Shown here: piece by piece, positions 3,335 to 20,629 of the stretch
Numbering within the stretch: position 1 is the stretch's first letter
Layout: each line of letters begins with the position of its first letter
Virus record (IMG/VR): IMGVR_UViG_3300035698_027665
Span: 1-64,000 of that record
Reading direction: 5' to 3' (one strand)
Length of the DNA: 64,000 nt
Source: a virus
Translations under genes and position numbers: made by a program
The notes under the pieces: generated by a model
What the model was told of the DNA's origin: nothing
What the model saw: only the letters and a program-made list of their open reading frames with translations
Database searches by the model: none

Positions 3335-3373
3335 AAGTCTCATGATTTTATATATGGTTTTTGTTTTTTTTAA

Positions 3374-3457
3374 TAGCCCTGACAGGAGTCGAACCTGCAC
3401 GACCTTTCGGTCAATGGATTTTGAATCCATTGCGTCTGCCAATTCCGCCACAGGGCC
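3374..3457 (-). tRNA. trnL: tRNA-Leu(CAA)
   Basis: GGCCCTG/CAGGGCT acceptor, ATGGA-TT-CAA-AA-TCCAT anticodon arm, long variable arm, GTTCGA T-loop; no encoded CCA. Confidence 0.95.
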
Positions 3458-3460
3458 ATA

Positions 3461-3991
3461 TTACATTTTCCATTTAGCTACAGGTATTCCCATTTCTACT
3501 TCTTCCCAACAATCCCCTAAATATTCGTGTTTTACAATTCCATCTTTCCCAATTTGCCATTTAATATAACAAACACCTAAATCATTTTTATTTATTTTTA
3601 GATTTTCAAATTCTTCTTTTGATATTGTTTTAATTGATCTTAATTCTGGAAAAACATTGTAATTTTCTATCATTGTTTTTAAATTTTCACAATATTCGCT
3701 AATGAAATTTTTGTCATAGTCATTTGAAAAAAACATATCTTTTTCTTTTAACGCCAAATAGCTTTTCATTGATTGAAATATTTCTAAATAATTAATGACT
3801 TCTTGTGCTGCACGTAGTTCTGTTTCAACATCCGCAGAAAAAAGATTGTATGACAATTTATCATTAACTTTGTAAAAATGTACAGGAGCAGGAAATCTAT
3901 TCACCCAAATTTTACTATGAAAAGAGCATAATTGATGCATGTTATATTTGGTTGCGATGTTTTTAAGTTGTTTATAAAAAATGATTGGCAT
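3461..3991 (-). CDS. hypothetical protein
   Basis: 176 aa ORF overlapping the upstream gene and ending just before the tRNA. Confidence 0.55.
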   Translation of the reverse strand: MPIIFYKQLKNIATKYNMHQLCSFHSKIWVNRFPAPVHFYKVNDKLSYNLFSADVETELRAAQEVINYLEIFQSMKSYLALKEKDMFFSNDYDKNFISEYCENLKTMIENYNVFPELRSIKTISKEEFENLKINKNDLGVCYIKWQIGKDGIVKHEYLGDCWEEVEMGIPVAKWKM

Positions 3992-4568
3992 CCTTTTGTT
4001 TTATAAAATTGTAAAAATAAGGTTGGTTTTCAAAAAGATTGTAACAGTGAGAAAAGTATAATTTTCTTCTTTCACTCATTTTGACTATAAAAGTTTTATT
4101 TTTTTCATCTATTTTTGAGAAATCGTTATGGAAAGGAGGAGAATGCCAATGTTCGACAAGATACATGAATTCTTTAAAATTCTTTTGTGCATCTTGATCA
4201 ATACGAACTGTAAGAGCATAGTATCTTTCTTCATCAGACCCAAAAATATTATTTTTTCTGCATGTTTTACATGGACCAAAAGAGGAACAACGTATATGTG
4301 GGTCATGTTTTCTTTTAACATGATTAGAATATTTTGTACTATCTTTTTTTACTTTGTTTGATTTTTCACGATATTGTTTTTTTCTATAATTTTTCCAAGA
4401 TTTTGGATTCCATTCTGATCTGTCATTATCGTCCCAATCGTCCACTAGATAGCTTGGCGACCTTCTTGCTCTGTGTAACCTTTTGTTCCATCCAACTTCT
4501 TTAGCATCTTCTAAAGAGGCATAGTACGAACGTTTTTCTTGAGTCGTTTTTGGTAATCTAAAATACAT
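3972..4568 (-). CDS. basic hypothetical protein with a DDWDD...KSWK..RKKQY motif
   Basis: 198 aa ORF; SD GAAAGG lies inside an upstream hairpin. Confidence 0.6.
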   Translation of the reverse strand: MYFRLPKTTQEKRSYYASLEDAKEVGWNKRLHRARRSPSYLVDDWDDNDRSEWNPKSWKNYRKKQYREKSNKVKKDSTKYSNHVKRKHDPHIRCSSFGPCKTCRKNNIFGSDEERYYALTVRIDQDAQKNFKEFMYLVEHWHSPPFHNDFSKIDEKNKTFIVKMSERRKLYFSHCYNLFENQPYFYNFIKQKDANHFL

Positions 4569-4641
4569 TTGTAGCCTTTCGTAGTTAAAATAAAACTAAC
4601 GAAGGGCCAAATGTTTTCCTATTTTTTTATTTATAAACATT

Positions 4642-4944
4642 TTAACCTATTGCCTTTAGAAATTCATTGAATCTTTTTAATTTTATGGAACCTGTTACTG
4701 TTATCGTATAGGTTTTATCTCCCACTTCTCCCGAATCATGTAAGTGTGTTTCTAAATCTTGATTATATGTCATTTTTTCTAAAAATCTATATAATTGTCT
4801 TTTCCCATAGTAATTCGTTTTTTTAGAATAATGTTTGAATATTTGATATCTTGTCGGTGTTTCCGTTGGCTGTAAGGAACTTATAATTTTTAATATAGCT
4901 ATTTCTCTCATATCAAATTTTATTTTTTTTGGAGTAAAAAGCAT
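4642..4944 (-). CDS. small protein, possibly winged-helix DNA-binding
   Basis: AAGGA SD; C-terminal KTYTITVTG wing-like pattern. Confidence 0.45.
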   Translation of the reverse strand: MLFTPKKIKFDMREIAILKIISSLQPTETPTRYQIFKHYSKKTNYYGKRQLYRFLEKMTYNQDLETHLHDSGEVGDKTYTITVTGSIKLKRFNEFLKAIG

Positions 4945-4967
4945 AAATATTTCCTTTTTTAAAAAAG

Positions 4968-5053
4968 CGGAGAGTACAGGGATCGAACCTGTAAGGCTTT
5001 CGCTCGCTCGACTTCCAATCGAGTGCCGTCGCCATCCATCGGCTAGACTCTCC
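4968..5053 (-). tRNA. trnS: tRNA-Ser(GGA)
   Basis: GGAGAGT/ACTCTCC acceptor, G discriminator, CTCGA-TT-GGA-AG-TCGAG anticodon arm, long variable arm. Confidence 0.9.
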
Positions 5054-5158
5054 TAGTGTTCACTATTCATGTTGGGGGTTTGTTAAATCAAAATATCCTA
5101 TATAATGCCCTTCTTTGTAGGCTAAAATAGATTTTTGTTTTGTTTTCTCGATTAAGCA

Positions 5159-5632
5159 CTAGTCACAAATGATTATTTCTATTCCGAAAGTGTGAGTGAA
5201 ATCGTCAATCACGGTAGACCCGTAGTTTCCGCTTGTTCGCCAACAAGTTGCAGAATGAGGAATGTCGAGATATTTAGATTTTGCATTGTCGTCATTATCA
5301 TTGAATTCATTTTTGACAATACAATCACATATCAAACACTTCCTTGTATAAAAATCATCAATAGCCCTGACAGGAGTTGAACCTGCAAGAGTGTTTAGCT
5401 CGCCAGAACCTAAATCTGGTGCGTTTGCCAATTTCGCCACAGGGCTGAATTTATACTTACTAAGACTTTCCAATCTTTTTTTTGTCAATTCTCGATCCAA
5501 ACAAATAGGAACTTGCCTGTCTTCCCCTTTTAGCATATCTATAGTAGAAGGCATTTTTCTAAAAGGATTAAAAATTAAAGGATAAAATATTTTTATTTTT
5601 ATTTTGTTTAAAACGTTTTTAATAATTTTCAT
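5159..5632 (-). CDS. hypothetical Cys-motif protein whose frame runs through tRNA-Leu(TAG)
   Basis: Open frame from ATG 5632 with CLIC and GNYGST motifs; ICD*C at the TAG; the frame stays open to 5063. Confidence 0.4.
   Translation of the reverse strand: MKIIKNVLNKIKIKIFYPLIFNPFRKMPSTIDMLKGEDRQVPICLDRELTKKRLESLSKYKFSPVAKLANAPDLGSGELNTLAGSTPVRAIDDFYTRKCLICDCIVKNEFNDNDDNAKSKYLDIPHSATCWRTSGNYGSTVIDDFTHTFGIEIIICD
5362..5446 (-). tRNA. trnL: tRNA-Leu(TAG)
   Basis: AGCCCTG/CAGGGCT acceptor, CCAGA-TT-TAG-GT-TCTGG anticodon arm, GTTCAA T-loop. Confidence 0.93.
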
Positions 5633-5879
5633 GATTGTTTTCCGTTTTGAAACAGCTTTGACAATGAATGCATTCAACATTTGCAGGCATCAATAATAAT
5701 TTTCCACTATCCTCTGGTACGCTTTCCCAATCATTTAGTCCATATTGTTCTCTAACTATTTCTTCATGTTCTTCTTTTGACATTTCTGGTGCAATTAAGT
5801 TTCCATAATTGTCACGCCCACAGTCATCACAAGTCCAAGCAAAAGCAGGTCTTAAATCATCAATATTTATGGTTTTCAA
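5619..5879 (-). CDS. zinc-ribbon-like hypothetical protein
   Basis: TTG start after AAGGA; two CxxC motifs (CDDC, CIHC); the upstream part of the listed ORF is tRNA. Confidence 0.55.
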   Translation of the reverse strand: MKTINIDDLRPAFAWTCDDCGRDNYGNLIAPEMSKEEHEEIVREQYGLNDWESVPEDSGKLLLMPANVECIHCQSCFKTENNHENY

Positions 5880-5897
5880 AACTATTCCTTTAAAAAG

Positions 5898-5979
5898 TAG
5901 CACTGACAGGATTCGAACCTGCATATCTTTCGACACATCGACCTCAACGATGAGCGTATACCAATTTCGCCACAGTGCC
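5898..5979 (-). tRNA. trnL: tRNA-Leu(GAG)
   Basis: GGCACTG/CAGTGCT acceptor, CATCG-TT-GAG-GT-CGATG anticodon arm, GTTCGAATC T-loop. Confidence 0.95.
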
Positions 5980-6011
5980 ATTGTACTATACAATTGTCTT
6001 TTGTAAAACAG

Positions 6012-6476
6012 TTATTGCTGTTCCGTATTAACATTTTGTTTTTGAATTAACTCACCAACTGCTTTTATGGTTGATAATTCATCTACGTTTATATAAAGAG
6101 ATTTAGAATTAGTTAAAGAAATGACCCTAATTAATTTTAAACAATTATTTTCTAATTTTTCATGAACCATTTCTACCAAACTTTTGTTTGGAAAATAATA
6201 AAAACCATCATCACATTCTTTTATTTTTTCCCAAATTTGCTCATCCGAAAACATTAAGTACAATTCGACCTGACGGTTTTTTTTGGTAGACCACCATCTT
6301 TTTTTATTTTTTTCTGCAACTTTTTTACGATGCTTACGAATTATTTCTTCTTTTTCTTTTTCTCTTTCTGTTTTTATGTTTTTTATACAATTTTCACATA
6401 ACAATTTTAAAGTTGTAATATCAATTCTTAACATCCCCAAAAGAGGGGTGCTTTTATTTGTTCCACATGAAGACAT
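6012..6476 (-). CDS. hypothetical protein
   Basis: 154 aa ORF with AAGGA SD between tRNAs. Confidence 0.55.
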   Translation of the reverse strand: MSSCGTNKSTPLLGMLRIDITTLKLLCENCIKNIKTEREKEKEEIIRKHRKKVAEKNKKRWWSTKKNRQVELYLMFSDEQIWEKIKECDDGFYYFPNKSLVEMVHEKLENNCLKLIRVISLTNSKSLYINVDELSTIKAVGELIQKQNVNTEQQ

Positions 6477-6511
6477 GAATTTATCCTTTATAATTTACAA
6501 TTTACAACAAA

Positions 6512-6600
6512 CGGAGCGAGAGGGATTCGAACCCTCGGACCACAAATTTGCGATCAACAGTTTAGCAAACTGTCGCTTTAAGCCACTCAGCCATCACTCC
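6512..6600 (-). tRNA. trnS: tRNA-Ser(GCT)
   Basis: GGAGTGA/TCGCTCC acceptor, ACAGT-TT-GCT-AA-ACTGT anticodon arm, long variable arm. Confidence 0.95.
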
Positions 6601-6632
6601 TGATTCAATCGGGTATCACAAAACGAATTGTA

Positions 6633-7058
6633 TCATGTTCTCCCGGATTTTTTTTGCGATCCTGTAATAGTTTCTATTCTTTTCACTTGGCATTTTTCAC
6701 AATGGGTATGAAATACAAAACCAGTACCACCTGTTGAAAAAACGCCGGGATTATCATCGCAGCCTCCCTCATTTTCAGATGTCCATTTATGGTTACACAC
6801 ATTTACTTTTGCTTCTAACATAATGGCTTCCTCATCAGGGGCAATATCTATAGTGAAATATTCTTTTTCTTCATTCCCTGTTTCATCAGTTAGAATATAG
6901 GAACATTGTATCGATGCCCCTTCTATACCCCAATATCCCTCTCTACACCAATCTTCAACTTTACTGGATGTCATTCGACGTGCTTCTAAAAAGCCGTTTG
7001 CCTTAAAAGAAGTTTCCTCAACTGAACAATTATCATACATTTTAATATTGTAATTCAT
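6633..7058 (-). CDS. hypothetical protein (C/H-rich C-terminus)
   Basis: 141 aa ORF with AAGGA SD, directly downstream of the RNA ligase gene. Confidence 0.6.
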   Translation of the reverse strand: MNYNIKMYDNCSVEETSFKANGFLEARRMTSSKVEDWCREGYWGIEGASIQCSYILTDETGNEEKEYFTIDIAPDEEAIMLEAKVNVCNHKWTSENEGGCDDNPGVFSTGGTGFVFHTHCEKCQVKRIETITGSQKKSGRT

Positions 7059-7079
7059 AAAATATCCTTTTTTAGATAA

Positions 7080-8387
7080 TTATTTTTCGTCACTTATGTT
7101 TCTTCTTGATAAATAATCTGCACTAATAGATTTTAGTATCATTCTGCCATTAGTAGCTGTTAACATCATGTTTTCATCTATTCTCTCCTTAGCAGTTTTT
7201 ACAACCACGCCTTCTCTGCCTTTGAATCCCTCTAATTGATCAGTTTTAGCAATAGTTGTAAGACCATCAGTATATTCTTTTACTTTTTCTATGGAAAATT
7301 TTCCTTTATAAAGCACAGGAACAATGTCTATAGAAAAATCAGAAGCTAGTTTTTGTACTATATCAAAGTCTAAATATTTATTGTTTACAGCCACGTCAAA
7401 GAGTCTAAATTTCTTTTCCTTTTTTAATCCATAATTCATACCTTTTTGAATGCCTGCTCCATATAATTCTCCATAAGCAATAACGCTTTTAGCATTTTCA
7501 TGTTGAGATTTCACGAAAAGCAAAAGAGGTTCTACTTCATCAGCGTTTATCCAAAATTCAGACAGCTTTAAAACAGGCTCATTATTTGAATCAACCTGCA
7601 TACAACTTAAATACACTTCATTTTCTCTGTCGCTTTTTTCTTTTACTTGCCAATAAACATTCCCAAATTTAAATACATCATTTTCTAAGGGTTCTTTTTC
7701 TATAACACCTTTTTTTATTAGTTTATTTGATTCAAATCTTTTTATGTTGTCGTATTCTTTTTTTCTTTGACTGTCATGTGATCCGACGACAAATACATCA
7801 TTTCCAAATTCATCTACTATTATTCCTATACGATTGGTTTTACCATGTATTTTTTCAGTAATTACTACTTCTTCATCTTTTTTGAATGCATTTGGATAAT
7901 TATTAAATTGTTCTATTTCAGTGTAATGATAAAAACTAGGATCAGAGCAAATAACATCTAATTCTTGTATGTTTGATGGTTCCCACTTTTCAACATTAAA
8001 ATGACTTTTAACATCTGTACCTACTTCCCAATTTGGATCATCACCTTGGGTTTCGTCTATTGGCATTATAACCCCAAATGATTTTTCGCCACGCAATATT
8101 GCAGCACGAACAATTCCACCTTCTTTTGAATTCCCTTTTTCATCTTTAGGAATAGGCTTCAAATATTTCATGATTCCCAATCTAGATTCAGCTAGATTTT
8201 TTGGCAAGATGGAGTCTGGAGGAAAGTAAACGCATTTATCTCCAGACTTAAATTGTGCTTGTTGAGTTTCTGGATTAAATCCTATACATATTTCCCACCC
8301 TTTTACAGTGGCAATAGCCATTTTGTCGGCTCTAGGATGTGGTTTCACATCTTTGATTTCGCAAACTTCAACAATCAAACTACTCAT
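7080..8387 (-). CDS. ATP-dependent RNA ligase (Rnl2-related, DRB0094-type, with N-terminal OB/tRNA-binding-like domain)
   Basis: Nucleotidyltransferase motifs I TEKIHG, III YGELYG, IIIa FRLFDV, IV REGVVVK and V LKSIS; N-terminal HPRADKMAIA OB-like segment. Confidence 0.88.
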   Translation of the reverse strand: MSSLIVEVCEIKDVKPHPRADKMAIATVKGWEICIGFNPETQQAQFKSGDKCVYFPPDSILPKNLAESRLGIMKYLKPIPKDEKGNSKEGGIVRAAILRGEKSFGVIMPIDETQGDDPNWEVGTDVKSHFNVEKWEPSNIQELDVICSDPSFYHYTEIEQFNNYPNAFKKDEEVVITEKIHGKTNRIGIIVDEFGNDVFVVGSHDSQRKKEYDNIKRFESNKLIKKGVIEKEPLENDVFKFGNVYWQVKEKSDRENEVYLSCMQVDSNNEPVLKLSEFWINADEVEPLLLFVKSQHENAKSVIAYGELYGAGIQKGMNYGLKKEKKFRLFDVAVNNKYLDFDIVQKLASDFSIDIVPVLYKGKFSIEKVKEYTDGLTTIAKTDQLEGFKGREGVVVKTAKERIDENMMLTATNGRMILKSISADYLSRRNISDEK

Positions 8388-8418
8388 TTGTTTTTCCTTA
8401 TTAAAATTTTTAAGCCAA

Positions 8419-8500
8419 TGCGTCTGTACGGAATCGAACCGTCTAGTCTAAAGACATCGGAGTTACAGTCCGATTTTGATCACCACCCAACAGCAGACGC
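8419..8500 (-). tRNA. trnY: tRNA-Tyr(GTA)
   Basis: GCGTCTG/CAGACGC acceptor, TCGGA-CT-GTA-AC-TCCGA anticodon arm, long variable arm; atypical D arm. Confidence 0.88.
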
Positions 8501-8506
8501 AAAAAG

Positions 8507-8589
8507 TAGCCCTGACAGGATTCGAACCTGCAAGCCTGCAAGGACAACGCATTTTAAGTGCGTAGCGTTTTCCATTTCGCCACAGGGCC
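8507..8589 (-). tRNA. trnL: tRNA-Leu(TAA)
   Basis: GGCCCTG/CAGGGCT acceptor, ACGCA-CT-TAA-AA-TGCGT anticodon arm. Confidence 0.95.
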
Positions 8590-8598
8590 AATTTAAAG

Positions 8599-8685
8599 CG
8601 GAGAGCAGAGGTAACGATCCCCAAACCGATTAAAGTTCCAGCCGTTTTCAAAACGGCGCTGTCACGCCTGTACAGTTTACTCTCC
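8599..8685 (-). tRNA. trnS: tRNA-Ser(TGA)
   Basis: GGAGAGT/GCTCTCC acceptor, GCCGT-TT-TGA-AA-ACGGC anticodon arm; atypical T-loop ATCGTTA. Confidence 0.85.
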
Positions 8686-8699
8686 ATTATTACATCGAA

Positions 8700-8773
8700 T
8701 GGCTAGGACAGGACTTGAACCTGCAACCAGCGGTACTTCACACCGCCACTCTACCAAATTGAGTTACCTAGCC
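8700..8773 (-). tRNA. trnF: tRNA-Phe(GAA)
   Basis: GGCTAGG/CCTAGCC acceptor, GCGGT-GT-GAA-GT-ACCGC anticodon arm, GTTCAAGTC T-loop. Confidence 0.9.
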
Positions 8774-8790
8774 GTTAATTTCTTATTCAC

Positions 8791-8803
8791 TTTTCAAAGA
8801 ACA
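8791..8803 (-). promoter_or_regulatory. rrn-type boxA (Nus antitermination site)
   Basis: TGTTCTTTGAAAA between the attenuator terminator and the first tRNA. Confidence 0.6.
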
Positions 8804-8813
8804 AATTATTCAT

Positions 8814-8845
8814 AAAAAAAAACCGCAAGTCGCTAAGACTTACGG
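8814..8845 (-). terminator. intrinsic terminator of the attenuator
   Basis: CCGTAAGTC-TTAGC-GACTTGCGG stem-loop followed by 9 T. Confidence 0.85.
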
Positions 8846-8887
8846 TTTTAAAAGCATTTTAAAATTGCTTCGTTTAGTCTATAGCGA
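8830..8887 (-). promoter_or_regulatory. antiterminator hairpin, mutually exclusive with the terminator
   Basis: TCGCTA(T)AGACT..ACG at the leader 3' end pairs with CGT.AGTCT-TAGCGA (terminator 5' arm and loop), enclosing an inner AAGCA/TGCTT stem. Confidence 0.75.
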
Positions 8888-8960
8888 TATCTTCCATGTT
8901 ACTAAGTAACAAATAAGACGATGATAAACTAAAACTAAAAAACATGCAATTCATTTTCAT
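8874..8960 (-). CDS. attenuator leader peptide (MK)MNCMFFSFSLSSSYLLLSNMEDIAID
   Basis: GAGG SD at 8964-8967; ATGs at 8960 and 8954; 14 consecutive F/S/L/Y codons at 8942-8901; stop codon lies within the antiterminator arm. Confidence 0.8.
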   Translation of the reverse strand: MKMNCMFFSFSLSSSYLLLSNMEDIAID

Positions 8961-9029
8961 TTTCCTCAATTTAATATAGTCTTCTCAAAACTTTTTTTGA
9001 AAACTACAATTCCTTTTCTTCGCACAATC

Positions 9030-9057
9030 ATTATAACACGTTGTTGCTGATTGTAAA
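9030..9057 (-). promoter_or_regulatory. sigma70-type promoter of the tRNA operon
   Basis: TTTACA-16 bp-TATAAT with an extended TG. Confidence 0.75.
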
Positions 9058-9067
9058 GCACAGCGTG

Positions 9068-9853
9068 TTATTTTTTTTCTAGCATTCTATCTGTCACATC
9101 TTTACCTTCAGAAAAAATTGAGCTTTTTTCTGTTGGGGGTTTCACTTCTCCAATCGGATTTTTCAAAGTTGCAAAACCCTTAGCAGCTTCTTTAGTATAA
9201 TCAGCCATTGCTCCTTCAACCCCACTGGTGAAATTTGCAACAGAAGCTATTCCTGTGCTTCTACGGGTGAAATATCTAGAAGTACCGTCAGATAAAGCTG
9301 ACATGCCAGTTTTGGCGTCATTAGCCGTTTTGTTATCCCAAACAGCCATGTTTCCCAATGCAACCCCTGTTTCTGCGGCAACTTGTAACATGCTTTGCTT
9401 ATCACATCCCATAAAGGTAAATGTCCAGTTGCCTTTGTTTTGGCAAGTTTCAATCATGCTTTTTAATGTGTCTGCATCGTATACTTGATCTGAATTGGTC
9501 TGCCCATCAGAAATGCCAATTACAAGAAAGGCGGTATCTTTATCTTTATCTTCTGTTGCTGTTTTTTGCAACTTTTGAATAGTGTATCCAATGGCGTCTC
9601 GCATTGCGGTAGCACCTGATGGATTATAATGAGAAGGATCAGCCGTGACTAATTTTTCAACATTCTCATTCCAAAGATGTTCAGTGACACGTCCATTGAA
9701 AGTGACCAAAGATACAAATATATCTTGTTCTTTGGCGTATTCTTGCATTTGCTGAACTTGTTCATTGAATCCTTCAATGGCTTGGTCTTTAGTGGACCAC
9801 ATAGACCCGGATTTATCTAATACTATTGCGACATAAGTTTTTTTCTTTTTCAT
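9068..9853 (-). CDS. von Willebrand factor A (VWA) domain protein
   Basis: MIDAS motif LDKSGS, GATAMRDAIG, ISDG, WTFTFMG. Confidence 0.88.
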   Translation of the reverse strand: MKKKKTYVAIVLDKSGSMWSTKDQAIEGFNEQVQQMQEYAKEQDIFVSLVTFNGRVTEHLWNENVEKLVTADPSHYNPSGATAMRDAIGYTIQKLQKTATEDKDKDTAFLVIGISDGQTNSDQVYDADTLKSMIETCQNKGNWTFTFMGCDKQSMLQVAAETGVALGNMAVWDNKTANDAKTGMSALSDGTSRYFTRRSTGIASVANFTSGVEGAMADYTKEAAKGFATLKNPIGEVKPPTEKSSIFSEGKDVTDRMLEKK

Positions 9854-10995: not shown

Positions 10996-11088
10996 TCGAT
11001 AGCTCCTTTTTTTCTACGCAGTCTAATACTGCTTAACTTCTACAGCGACTTTTAGTTGACCTTCAACATGGCTCGCCAAACCATTAGT

Positions 11089-19030: not shown

Positions 19031-20629
19031 ATGTCTAAATATATTTTTGTTGTTGGTGGTGTAATAAGCGGTACTGGAAAAGGCATAGCTGCTGCTTCCA
19101 TTGCACTTCTTTTGAAACTAAGAGGGCATACTGTAGATATGCTAAAGTTTGATCCTTATCTTTCTATTGATGCTGGAATTTTATCGCCGGGACAACATGG
19201 TGAATGTTTTGTTTGTGATGACGGAAAAGAAAGCGATCTTGATATAGGTAGTTACGAACGTTTAGCCAATATCCCGGTATCTAAAGAAAACACATGTACT
19301 TCTGGAATTTTGTATAAAGAACTTTTATCTGAACAAGAATCTGGAGTTTGTTTAGGACAAACTTATCAAGTCATTCCGCATATGACTAATAAAATTCAAA
19401 AAAGAATAACAGACCTTGGCGAGAAATCCGATGTTGTCGTAATAGAAATAGGTGGCACTGTAGGAGATATAGAAAGTGCTGCATTTTATGAAGCCATAAG
19501 GATATTCAAACAAAAAAATGATTGTTTAGTAACTATGGTTGCTCCTATATTGTGGATACCCACTATAAAAGAATTTAAAACAAAACCATTACAAAACGCA
19601 ATAAGAGATTTGCAACATCATGGGATAAGTCCTGATTTATTGCTTTGTCGAGTGGATAGAGAAGTATCTGAAAAAATACTTAAAAAAGTATCTGATTTAA
19701 CGGGGATGTCACGAGATTGTGTGTTTGACGCTCCAGATGTTTCATCAATATATAAAGTTCCAATTGAGTTTTACAATCGCCATGTAGACGATGCTGTTGT
19801 AGATATTTTACACATGAAAAGAACACCATGTAGGATATCTAAATACAAAGAATTAGTAGAAACAAAAACAGATTCAGAAGTAAACATTGGAATAATTGGG
19901 AAATATGTTGATGTTGAAGATTCCTACATTTCTATCAAAGAATCTCTTTATCACGCTGGCGTTGCAAATAATGCAAAAGTGAATATAAAATGGATAGATG
20001 CCGAGAAGTTAGAGAAATCTAAAAGCACGCATTGCGTCCATAATTATTTTGAAAATCTGCATGGAATTATTGTTCCGGGAGGGTTTGACGTTCGTGGAGT
20101 TGAAGGGAAAATTAAAGCAATACGTTATGCTAGAGAAAAAAACATTCCTTTTTTGGGAATATGTCTAGGATTACAATGTGCGGTAATAGAATTCGCTAGA
20201 AATGTTTTAAACATAAGCAATGCGAATAGTTTAGAATTTGATCAAAAATCCACTGATCCTGTAATATACTACGTAGAGGGACAGGAAAATATAAAGAAAA
20301 AAAATGGAACTATGCGATTAGGAGCCTATGACTGCGATTTGAAAAAAGATAGTATGGCTCGTGATTTATATGGAAAAAAAAGAATATCAGAGAGACACAG
20401 ACACAGATTAGAAGTTAATCCCGAATATGTCTCAAAATATGAAGAAAATGGATTTAAAGTATCGGGGATTCATCCCCAATCTAATCTAATTGAAATAATG
20501 GAATTAGAATCTCATCCTTTCTTCATAGGGGTTCAAGCACATCCAGAATTCAAAAGTAGTTTGATTAATCCTGCTCCTTTATTTGTAGGATTAATACACG
20601 CAGCAAAAATAAATGAAAAATTAAGTTAA
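19031..20629 (+). CDS. pyrG: CTP synthase
   Basis: GGVISGTGKG, KFDPY, EIGGTVGDIE, KTKPLQ, GICLG, ERHRHR, QAHPEF. Confidence 0.97.
   Translation: MSKYIFVVGGVISGTGKGIAAASIALLLKLRGHTVDMLKFDPYLSIDAGILSPGQHGECFVCDDGKESDLDIGSYERLANIPVSKENTCTSGILYKELLSEQESGVCLGQTYQVIPHMTNKIQKRITDLGEKSDVVVIEIGGTVGDIESAAFYEAIRIFKQKNDCLVTMVAPILWIPTIKEFKTKPLQNAIRDLQHHGISPDLLLCRVDREVSEKILKKVSDLTGMSRDCVFDAPDVSSIYKVPIEFYNRHVDDAVVDILHMKRTPCRISKYKELVETKTDSEVNIGIIGKYVDVEDSYISIKESLYHAGVANNAKVNIKWIDAEKLEKSKSTHCVHNYFENLHGIIVPGGFDVRGVEGKIKAIRYAREKNIPFLGICLGLQCAVIEFARNVLNISNANSLEFDQKSTDPVIYYVEGQENIKKKNGTMRLGAYDCDLKKDSMARDLYGKKRISERHRHRLEVNPEYVSKYEENGFKVSGIHPQSNLIEIMELESHPFFIGVQAHPEFKSSLINPAPLFVGLIHAAKINEKLS

Follow-up and report, generated by a model that had tools for sequence, protein, structure and literature searches.

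Why does a phage carry, ahead of an operon of nine tRNA genes serving only phenylalanine, serine, leucine and tyrosine, a short open reading frame (ORF) in which fourteen consecutive codons specify only those four amino acids, followed by an intrinsic terminator? The locus in question lies on the minus strand of the window, by which we mean positions 1 to 64,000 of an IMG/VR record of 99 kb (IMGVR_UViG_3300035698_027665; 33% GC) that, given a completeness of 20% by CheckV estimate, is taken as a fragment of a giant phage. The parts of the leader, shuffling controls, RNA folding, conservation across 17 loci and covariation together support, in silico, the core of the original prediction for this DNA, namely that the leader is likely to be a ribosome-mediated, multi-codon leader-peptide attenuator of the trp/his type that gates the tRNA operon. 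Its recurrence in 16 distant relatives leads us to conclude that production of these Phe, Ser, Leu and Tyr tRNAs by the phage is probably confined to times when ribosomes slow on the cognate codons.

Parts of the leader and the predicted switch

Transcription of the leader is predicted to start near position 9023, from a sigma-70-type early promoter, TTTACA-16-(TG)TATAAT (9030-9057; an 11/12 match plus a TG extension), which ranked first among the 37 sites of an 8-kb scan. This promoter belongs to a genome family of about eight TTTACA-N16-TAnAAT promoters, the rest of which head ordinary genes with leaders of 30-55 nt. The transcript would open with a hairpin (8975-9008), seen in the minimum-energy fold as well as in the centroid, followed by a Shine-Dalgarno sequence (SD), GAGG (8967-8964), and the leader ORF (8874-8960), which has 28 codons if read from ATG 8960 or 26 from ATG 8954 and stops at TAA 8876-8874. 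The putative sensor, a run of 14 consecutive Phe/Ser/Leu/Tyr codons (FFSFSLSSSYLLLS; 8901-8942), includes a segment, region 1 (8932-8924), that is able to pair with region 2 (8871-8887), which covers the final codons and the stop codon and would serve as the 5' arm of an antiterminator. Beyond the ORF stands the intrinsic terminator (8814-8849), with a stem of 8845-8837/8831-8823, a 5-nt loop (8836-8832) and nine T (8822-8814). With its A/U extension the stem spans 8849-8819, and 8844-8830 would also act as the antiterminator's 3' arm. This hairpin (13 pairs, -19.4 kcal/mol, z = -4.4) is the sole strong minus-strand terminator within 8 kb and is located at the operon head. The 45 nt that separate it from the first tRNA (8818-8774) contain no promoter-like site; a motif within them (TGTTCTTTGAAAA; 8791-8803) resembles boxA. 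Promoter, SD, ORF, codon run, terminator and tRNA genes were each found where the original prediction had placed them, and the nine tRNAs have the identities and anticodons that it gave.

Since T-rich DNA favors these codons, it had been cautioned that comparable runs might arise often in shuffled sequence. This was not so when the 173-nt leader was shuffled 5000 times with its dinucleotides preserved: an ORF run of at least 8 such codons appeared in 0.12% of shuffles (P = 0.0012) and a run of 14 was never reached (0/5000). The run is also the longest of its kind in the six frames of the 99-kb record. The more detailed claim, that the codons match the tRNAs isoacceptor by isoacceptor, is correct for 8 of the 9 anticodons but is not significant alone in the window: when fourteen Phe/Ser/Leu/Tyr triplets are drawn at random, 8 or more anticodons are covered 33% of the time, and synonymous resampling of the window leader gives P = 0.5 for the anticodon match. 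When all the leaders described below are considered, distinct synonymous codons are more numerous than local codon usage predicts (Fisher 4e-7, a lenient value for related sequences).

The complete leader folds at -50.7 kcal/mol (z = -4.0) into the 5' hairpin, a hairpin at the SD and start codon, a 1:2 stem and the terminator, the 1:2 stem consisting of 9 bp between 8932-8924 in the run and 8882-8874 in the stop region. Alternatively, region 2 (8887-8871) pairs with 8844-8830, a stretch that takes in most of the terminator 5' arm as well as the loop and two 3'-arm bases, through 14 pairs (-15.5 kcal/mol, z = -3.05). Pairing between the stop region and the terminator 5' arm reached -15.6 kcal/mol, whereas shuffled sequences averaged -7.7 (P = 0.003-0.01), bearing out the proposal that the final leader codons can pair with the arm and loop of the terminator. 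The switch was modeled on a transcript ended at the terminator loop, to which a ribosome footprint was added. The antiterminator was predicted with a probability of 0.93 when the A-site lay at codons 7-21, that is, in the run, and was gone at codons 24-29, so that the structural switch point coincides with the run end. Folding with the ribosome-covered segment thereby gave two mutually exclusive structures, as anticipated. In the minimum-energy fold, the SD/start region (UUGAGGAAAA) pairs with the first codons of the run (UUUUUUAGUU; 8940-8972), and in this model ribosome loading may be limited to a brief co-transcriptional window.

Under the proposed mechanism, the early promoter would start the transcript and a ribosome would load on the 26-28-codon leader ORF. 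Were the 14 codons decoded fast, the ribosome would arrive at the last codons and the stop, covering the partner of the terminator 5' arm; the terminator would then form and the transcript would end ahead of the first tRNA. Were a charged cognate tRNA scarce, decoding would slow at any codon of the run and the ribosome would lag there, leaving the stop-proximal segment to pair with the terminator arm and allowing read-through into the nine tRNA genes. The tRNA products would relieve the stall, which would make this a closed negative-feedback loop on tRNA supply. We infer that the leader ORF is translated, that stalling sets read-through by a kinetic choice between hairpins, and what the natural cause of a shortage might be; host anticodon nucleases could conceivably be the trigger.

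The leader in related phages

Alignment of SbcD identified 80 IMG/VR loci of the phage lineage. In 17 of them (15 distinct, 33-60% GC), a cluster of Ser, Leu and Tyr tRNA genes, usually including Phe and in one case Cys, lies upstream of sbcD, and the leader is present at all of the cluster-bearing loci. These 15 distinct loci and locus L146, from the phage LR756511.1, constitute the 16 relatives of the window, giving a set of 17 leaders. In 17/17 the ORF is 21-30 codons long and the terminator stem lies 23-36 nt past the stop; an SD-like motif is present in 15, and Phe, Ser, Leu and Tyr account for 63% of residues when all 17 are pooled. Reading frame, cognate-codon run, terminator and spacing are thus kept, and the loss of these features among relatives, which the original prediction had named as contrary evidence, did not occur.

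At the sequence level, the amino-acid class is kept in the run while its nucleotides drift. Among six close pairs of leaders, substitutions in the run comprised 21 synonymous, 7 within the Phe/Ser/Leu/Tyr set and only 3 out of the set, while those in the tail codons comprised 9 synonymous and 16 non-synonymous changes. The indels in these pairs are all multiples of three, by which Ser, Leu or Tyr codons are gained or lost. The runs of L146 and L225 have only 4 identical codons and 10 synonymous differences. The only cluster with tRNA-Cys, that of L203, is also the only one whose leader has Cys codons inside the run. This locus (IMGVR_UViG_3300033075_000861; 60% GC) has two tRNA-Cys genes and two Cys codons in its run, a single case of content tracking, and its leader is positioned ~300-400 nt upstream of the tRNA-Ser at 7377.

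The two structural partners also appear to change together. In each lineage, the stop segment, taken to run from 20 nt upstream of the stop to 16 nt downstream of it, is complementary to the terminator 5' arm, although the sequences differ. For 11 representative leaders, each stop segment was paired with its own arm and with the ten others. Own-arm pairing was stronger than foreign pairing by 3.6 kcal/mol after centering (permutation P = 7e-5), with the own arm ranked first in 5/11 cases and among the top three in 8/11, indicating that the covariation between stop region and terminator arm that had been expected of relatives is present. Mean predicted sequestration of the 5' arm was 0.77 with a ribosome in mid-run, 0.68 at the run end and 0.36 at the stop, a drop that is partly trivial given that less RNA is free.

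The most complete comparison is with LR756511.1, an uncultured phage of 595 kb and 42% GC, which was reached through the CTP synthase gene (window 19031-20629) and has ~40 proteins in common with the window genome at 26-64% identity. Gene order is kept, with the tRNA cluster and leader on one strand and sbcD, sbcC, ribonucleotide reductase and CTP synthase divergent. The cluster, at 427-437.5 kb, has four Ser, six Leu and two Tyr tRNAs and no others, and at its head, on the minus strand, are a promoter (TTGACA-16-TAAAGT, preceded by TG), an SD motif, a 27-codon GTG ORF with the run LSSYSLSSLLYS, and a 17-bp terminator followed by TATCTTTGACAAT and then tRNA-Ser. A boxA-like motif and a 5' hairpin analogous to that of the window are present as well. 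Across the six frames of the 595 kb, no other Ser/Leu/Tyr run is as long as this one of 12 codons, and at the ~40 other tRNA blocks of this genome neither a matched short ORF nor a strong terminator was found.

We also scanned the 80 loci blind (1.49 Mb, six frames), requiring a run of at least 8 Phe/Ser/Leu/Tyr codons with at least three residue types and a stop within 14 codons, followed 10-50 nt past the stop by a hairpin with a folding energy of at most -15 kcal/mol and a T-rich tail. All 15 matches lay upstream of a matching cluster on the same strand, with zero elsewhere and zero in the 63 cluster-free loci; the two cluster loci that fell below these thresholds have a leader confirmed by hand. 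A matched leader was also missing from ten unrelated tRNA arrays of phages, each located near a ligase gene. Based on these arrays and the ~40 blocks of LR756511.1, the matched leader is not, in these data, a general feature of phage tRNA genes. Searches with other markers from the window returned little: the RNA ligase gave only homologues of at most 48% identity and no syntenic array, a 28-nt tRNA-Phe pattern had no match in viral contigs, the VWA-domain neighbor led to one noisy contig without tRNAs, and blastn of the leader against GenBank phages retrieved only generic tRNAs.

The distance from the T tract to the first tRNA bears on whether the terminator must be passed. In L182, L200, L202, L204 and L228 it is only 3-10 nt, which leaves no room for a promoter, and the tRNAs of these five loci therefore need read-through. 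In six other loci, the window included, the distance is 32-58 nt. A boxA-like core, TCTTTGA(A/C)AA, occurs at the same place in 8/17 leaders (window 8791-8803; L146 ~11035-11047; L198, L203, L223, L224, L225 and L234) and is missing where the tRNA abuts the terminator. Because it follows the terminator, this motif could not act on it, and it may instead load Nus factors after read-through.

Weighing the explanations

Several observations count against the attenuator. At equilibrium, folding with the full terminator yields the terminator at every ribosome position, and any switch must therefore be kinetic, as is that of the trp attenuator. Without a ribosome the prediction is mixed in the window, with probabilities of 0.36 for the 1:2 stem and 0.57 for the 2:3 pairing, and sequestration of the terminator arm averages 0.62 across the family. 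The 1:2 stem itself is not general in the family, being seen in the window and in LR756511.1. The leaders of L235 and L242 have no SD-like motif; those of L146, L198, L225 and L234 contain Phe codons, while their examined clusters show no tRNA-Phe; and four loci have an ORF of 0.4-1.2 kb between the terminator and the first tRNA. Tests of the stop-arm duplex against shuffles are weak individually in the GC-rich members (median P = 0.17), and full anticodon coverage, although found in 15/17 leaders, is no better than that obtained by synonymous resampling (Fisher 0.13). Finally, Phe/Ser/Leu/Tyr runs of 12-13 codons occur six further times in the 99-kb record.

This last point, together with the fact that 30% of all-frame triplets in a genome of 33% GC are Phe, Ser, Leu or Tyr codons, is what favors the view that a short ORF arose by chance in T-rich intergenic DNA beside an ordinary terminator. 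Given that the shuffles never reached 14 codons, that the unit recurs in 16 relatives of up to 60% GC, that the run of the 595-kb relative is the longest genome-wide and that no blind match fell off the clusters, we give hardly any credence to this explanation and regard it as effectively refuted. It is also very doubtful that the ORF is a stand-alone gene for a Ser/Leu-rich micro-protein, with the hairpin as its terminator and the tRNAs transcribed from another promoter or by constitutive leak. Promoter, ORF and terminator do resemble a complete small gene, and the composition and length of the peptide are conserved; however, the within-set swaps and the in-frame gain and loss of Ser and Leu codons point to selection on codon class and not on a defined peptide, and the tail outside the run evolves freely. 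Such a gene would, moreover, leave the tRNAs of the five loci without promoter room unserved by a promoter of their own, and its confinement to the heads of matching tRNA clusters (15/15 blind matches) and the covariation of its stop region with the terminator arm argue against it as well.

A remaining explanation, which we consider unlikely, accepts the terminator as a gate but has it controlled independently of cognate decoding speed, for example by an antiterminator protein of the phage or the host, by Nus factors with the boxA-like element or by a temporal switch, the ORF serving only for coupling or unfolding. Huge phages encode many unknown regulators, the predicted no-ribosome state is ambiguous and the boxA-like motif after the terminator is kept in nearly half of the leaders (8/17), although its downstream position is one at which it is unable to act on the terminator. 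What such control leaves unexplained is the synonymous and within-set retention of Phe, Ser, Leu and Tyr codons across 33-60% GC, the match between the run and the tRNA set, including Cys in L203, and the fixed spacing of 23-36 nt between stop and stem.

The operon, its neighborhood and known systems

In the window, the whole locus is on the minus strand, and a VWA-domain gene ending at 9068 precedes the promoter. The first tRNA block (8418-8773) comprises Phe(GAA), which begins at 8773, Ser(TGA), Leu(TAA) and Tyr(GTA), and is followed inside the operon by an RNA ligase gene (7080-8387; PF09414 with an OB domain, PF21189) and then by Ser(GCT), Leu(GAG), Leu(TAG), Ser(GGA) and Leu(CAA) with small ORFs interspersed (3373-6600). 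From the tRNA block down to 3373, no second strong terminator was found between the tRNAs on this strand. A second early-type promoter, TTTACA-16-TACAAT (5980-6007, minus strand), ends 1 base before the 5' end of tRNA-Leu(GAG), so that a transcript from it would start within that tRNA; it may have arisen by chance or may serve the distal genes as an internal promoter. Across 8400-9400 of the window, contigs from four salt-lake DNA runs, originating from different studies, are identical wherever they overlap, with no population variation; no RNA run was listed as carrying the stretch. A 3-kb metagenome fragment (L073) is 99% identical to the distal operon and does not include the leader.

Two earlier suggestions about the content of the operon need revision in light of LR756511.1. 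The RNA ligase had been counted among the genes that read-through would switch on, but it does not belong to the conserved module: its only homologue in LR756511.1 (64628-65725; 26-31% identity) is ~370 kb from the tRNA cluster, and between these two phages the presence of a ligase within the tRNA operon is peculiar to that of the window. The restriction of the tRNAs to four amino acids is true of this operon; as a property of the whole phage it is probably an artefact of the fragment, because the complete relative has this cluster among several tRNA regions. Its short-arm tRNAs (~48) sit apart, at 176-291 kb, with 136 kb between them and the Ser/Leu/Tyr cluster. LR756511.1 also encodes a tRNA with a CUA anticodon (an amber reader; 179588-179661, L155), a tRNA called with a four-base anticodon (gaaa; 290614-290689, L161) and a tmRNA (341280-341632, L164).

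The grouping of tRNAs is itself a feature of this huge-phage clade. The long-variable-arm tRNAs, that is, all isoacceptors of Ser, Leu and Tyr, are grouped beside sbcD, often with Phe and once with Cys. Such segregated clusters lie on the minus strand upstream of sbcD in the window (3373-8773), L146 (1201-11021), L182, L198, L200, L203, L204, L225, L228, L234, L235 and L243. Phe, Leu, Ser, Tyr and Cys are amino acids with codons that start with U.

Leader-peptide attenuation is textbook knowledge for the amino-acid operons of enterobacteria, where thrL senses Thr and Ile, and ilvL, ahead of ilvGMEDA, senses Ile, Leu and Val; trpL, hisL, leuL and pheL are further examples. The phage element shares with leaders such as thrL and ilvL a short leader, a run of codons for several amino acids, a stop near the competing segment and a terminator before the genes, as well as the selection, here predicted, of one of two exclusive hairpins by ribosome position. 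It differs in being viral, in controlling tRNAs and not biosynthetic enzymes, and in that its 1:2 stem is not general. An Rfam cmscan of 8300-9200 (E <= 10) returned the tRNAs and chance-level hits only, with no leader family (Trp, His, Thr, Leu or Phe) and no T-box. In the pheST attenuator of Escherichia coli, Phe codons in the pheM leader sense charged tRNA-Phe and control Phe-tRNA synthetase. Like the phage element, it reports on the translation apparatus and not on a biosynthetic pathway; unlike it, pheST is cellular, controls a synthetase and responds to a single amino acid. Attenuator-like leaders were considered for the E. coli tRNA-Phe genes pheU and pheV and rejected: in their sequences the promoter stands directly before the tRNA, and a leader ORF and a terminator are both absent. 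T-box riboswitches are also transcription attenuators that sense tRNA status and control genes of the decoding apparatus, but their ligand is the uncharged tRNA itself, and no ORF is required.

Among published tRNA arrays with conditional expression, the nearest is the trn operon of Anabaena PCC 7120, a long tRNA array that is stress-induced (PMC8421152, PMC10272220) and is controlled by a protein repressor, TrcR, at its promoter (PMC10272220). It resembles the phage operon in being an accessory tRNA array that is silent until translation is impaired, and differs in being cellular and under the control of a protein repressor; the words attenuator, leader and terminator are absent from the text of PMC8421152. 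A full-text literature search, whose scope lay mostly outside the subscription journals, turned up no attenuator of tRNA genes, whether cellular or viral. Based on the sequence comparisons above, we lean towards the view that this huge-phage clade has a self-contained tRNA homeostat, in which the decoding speed of the codons that the cluster serves (Ser, Leu and Tyr, with Phe and sometimes Cys) would set the cluster's own transcription, and that it would represent the first ribosome-mediated attenuator known for tRNA genes.

If this is true, the ribosome would gauge tRNA supply and adjust tRNA transcription by feedback within a single cis element of ~200 nt, and phage tRNA genes, at least at these loci, would be conditional and not constitutive. 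The phage would top up exactly those tRNAs that become depleted, whether by codon demand, by loss of host tRNAs in infection or by tRNA-targeting defense. This bears on why large phages carry tRNAs, whether for codon compensation or for the replacement of tRNAs lost to host shut-off and defense nucleases, and a small, portable element with a predicted codon-specific response makes the question directly testable. In addition, the element would mark a conserved and separately regulated cluster of long-arm (Ser/Leu/Tyr) tRNAs in this clade of huge phages.

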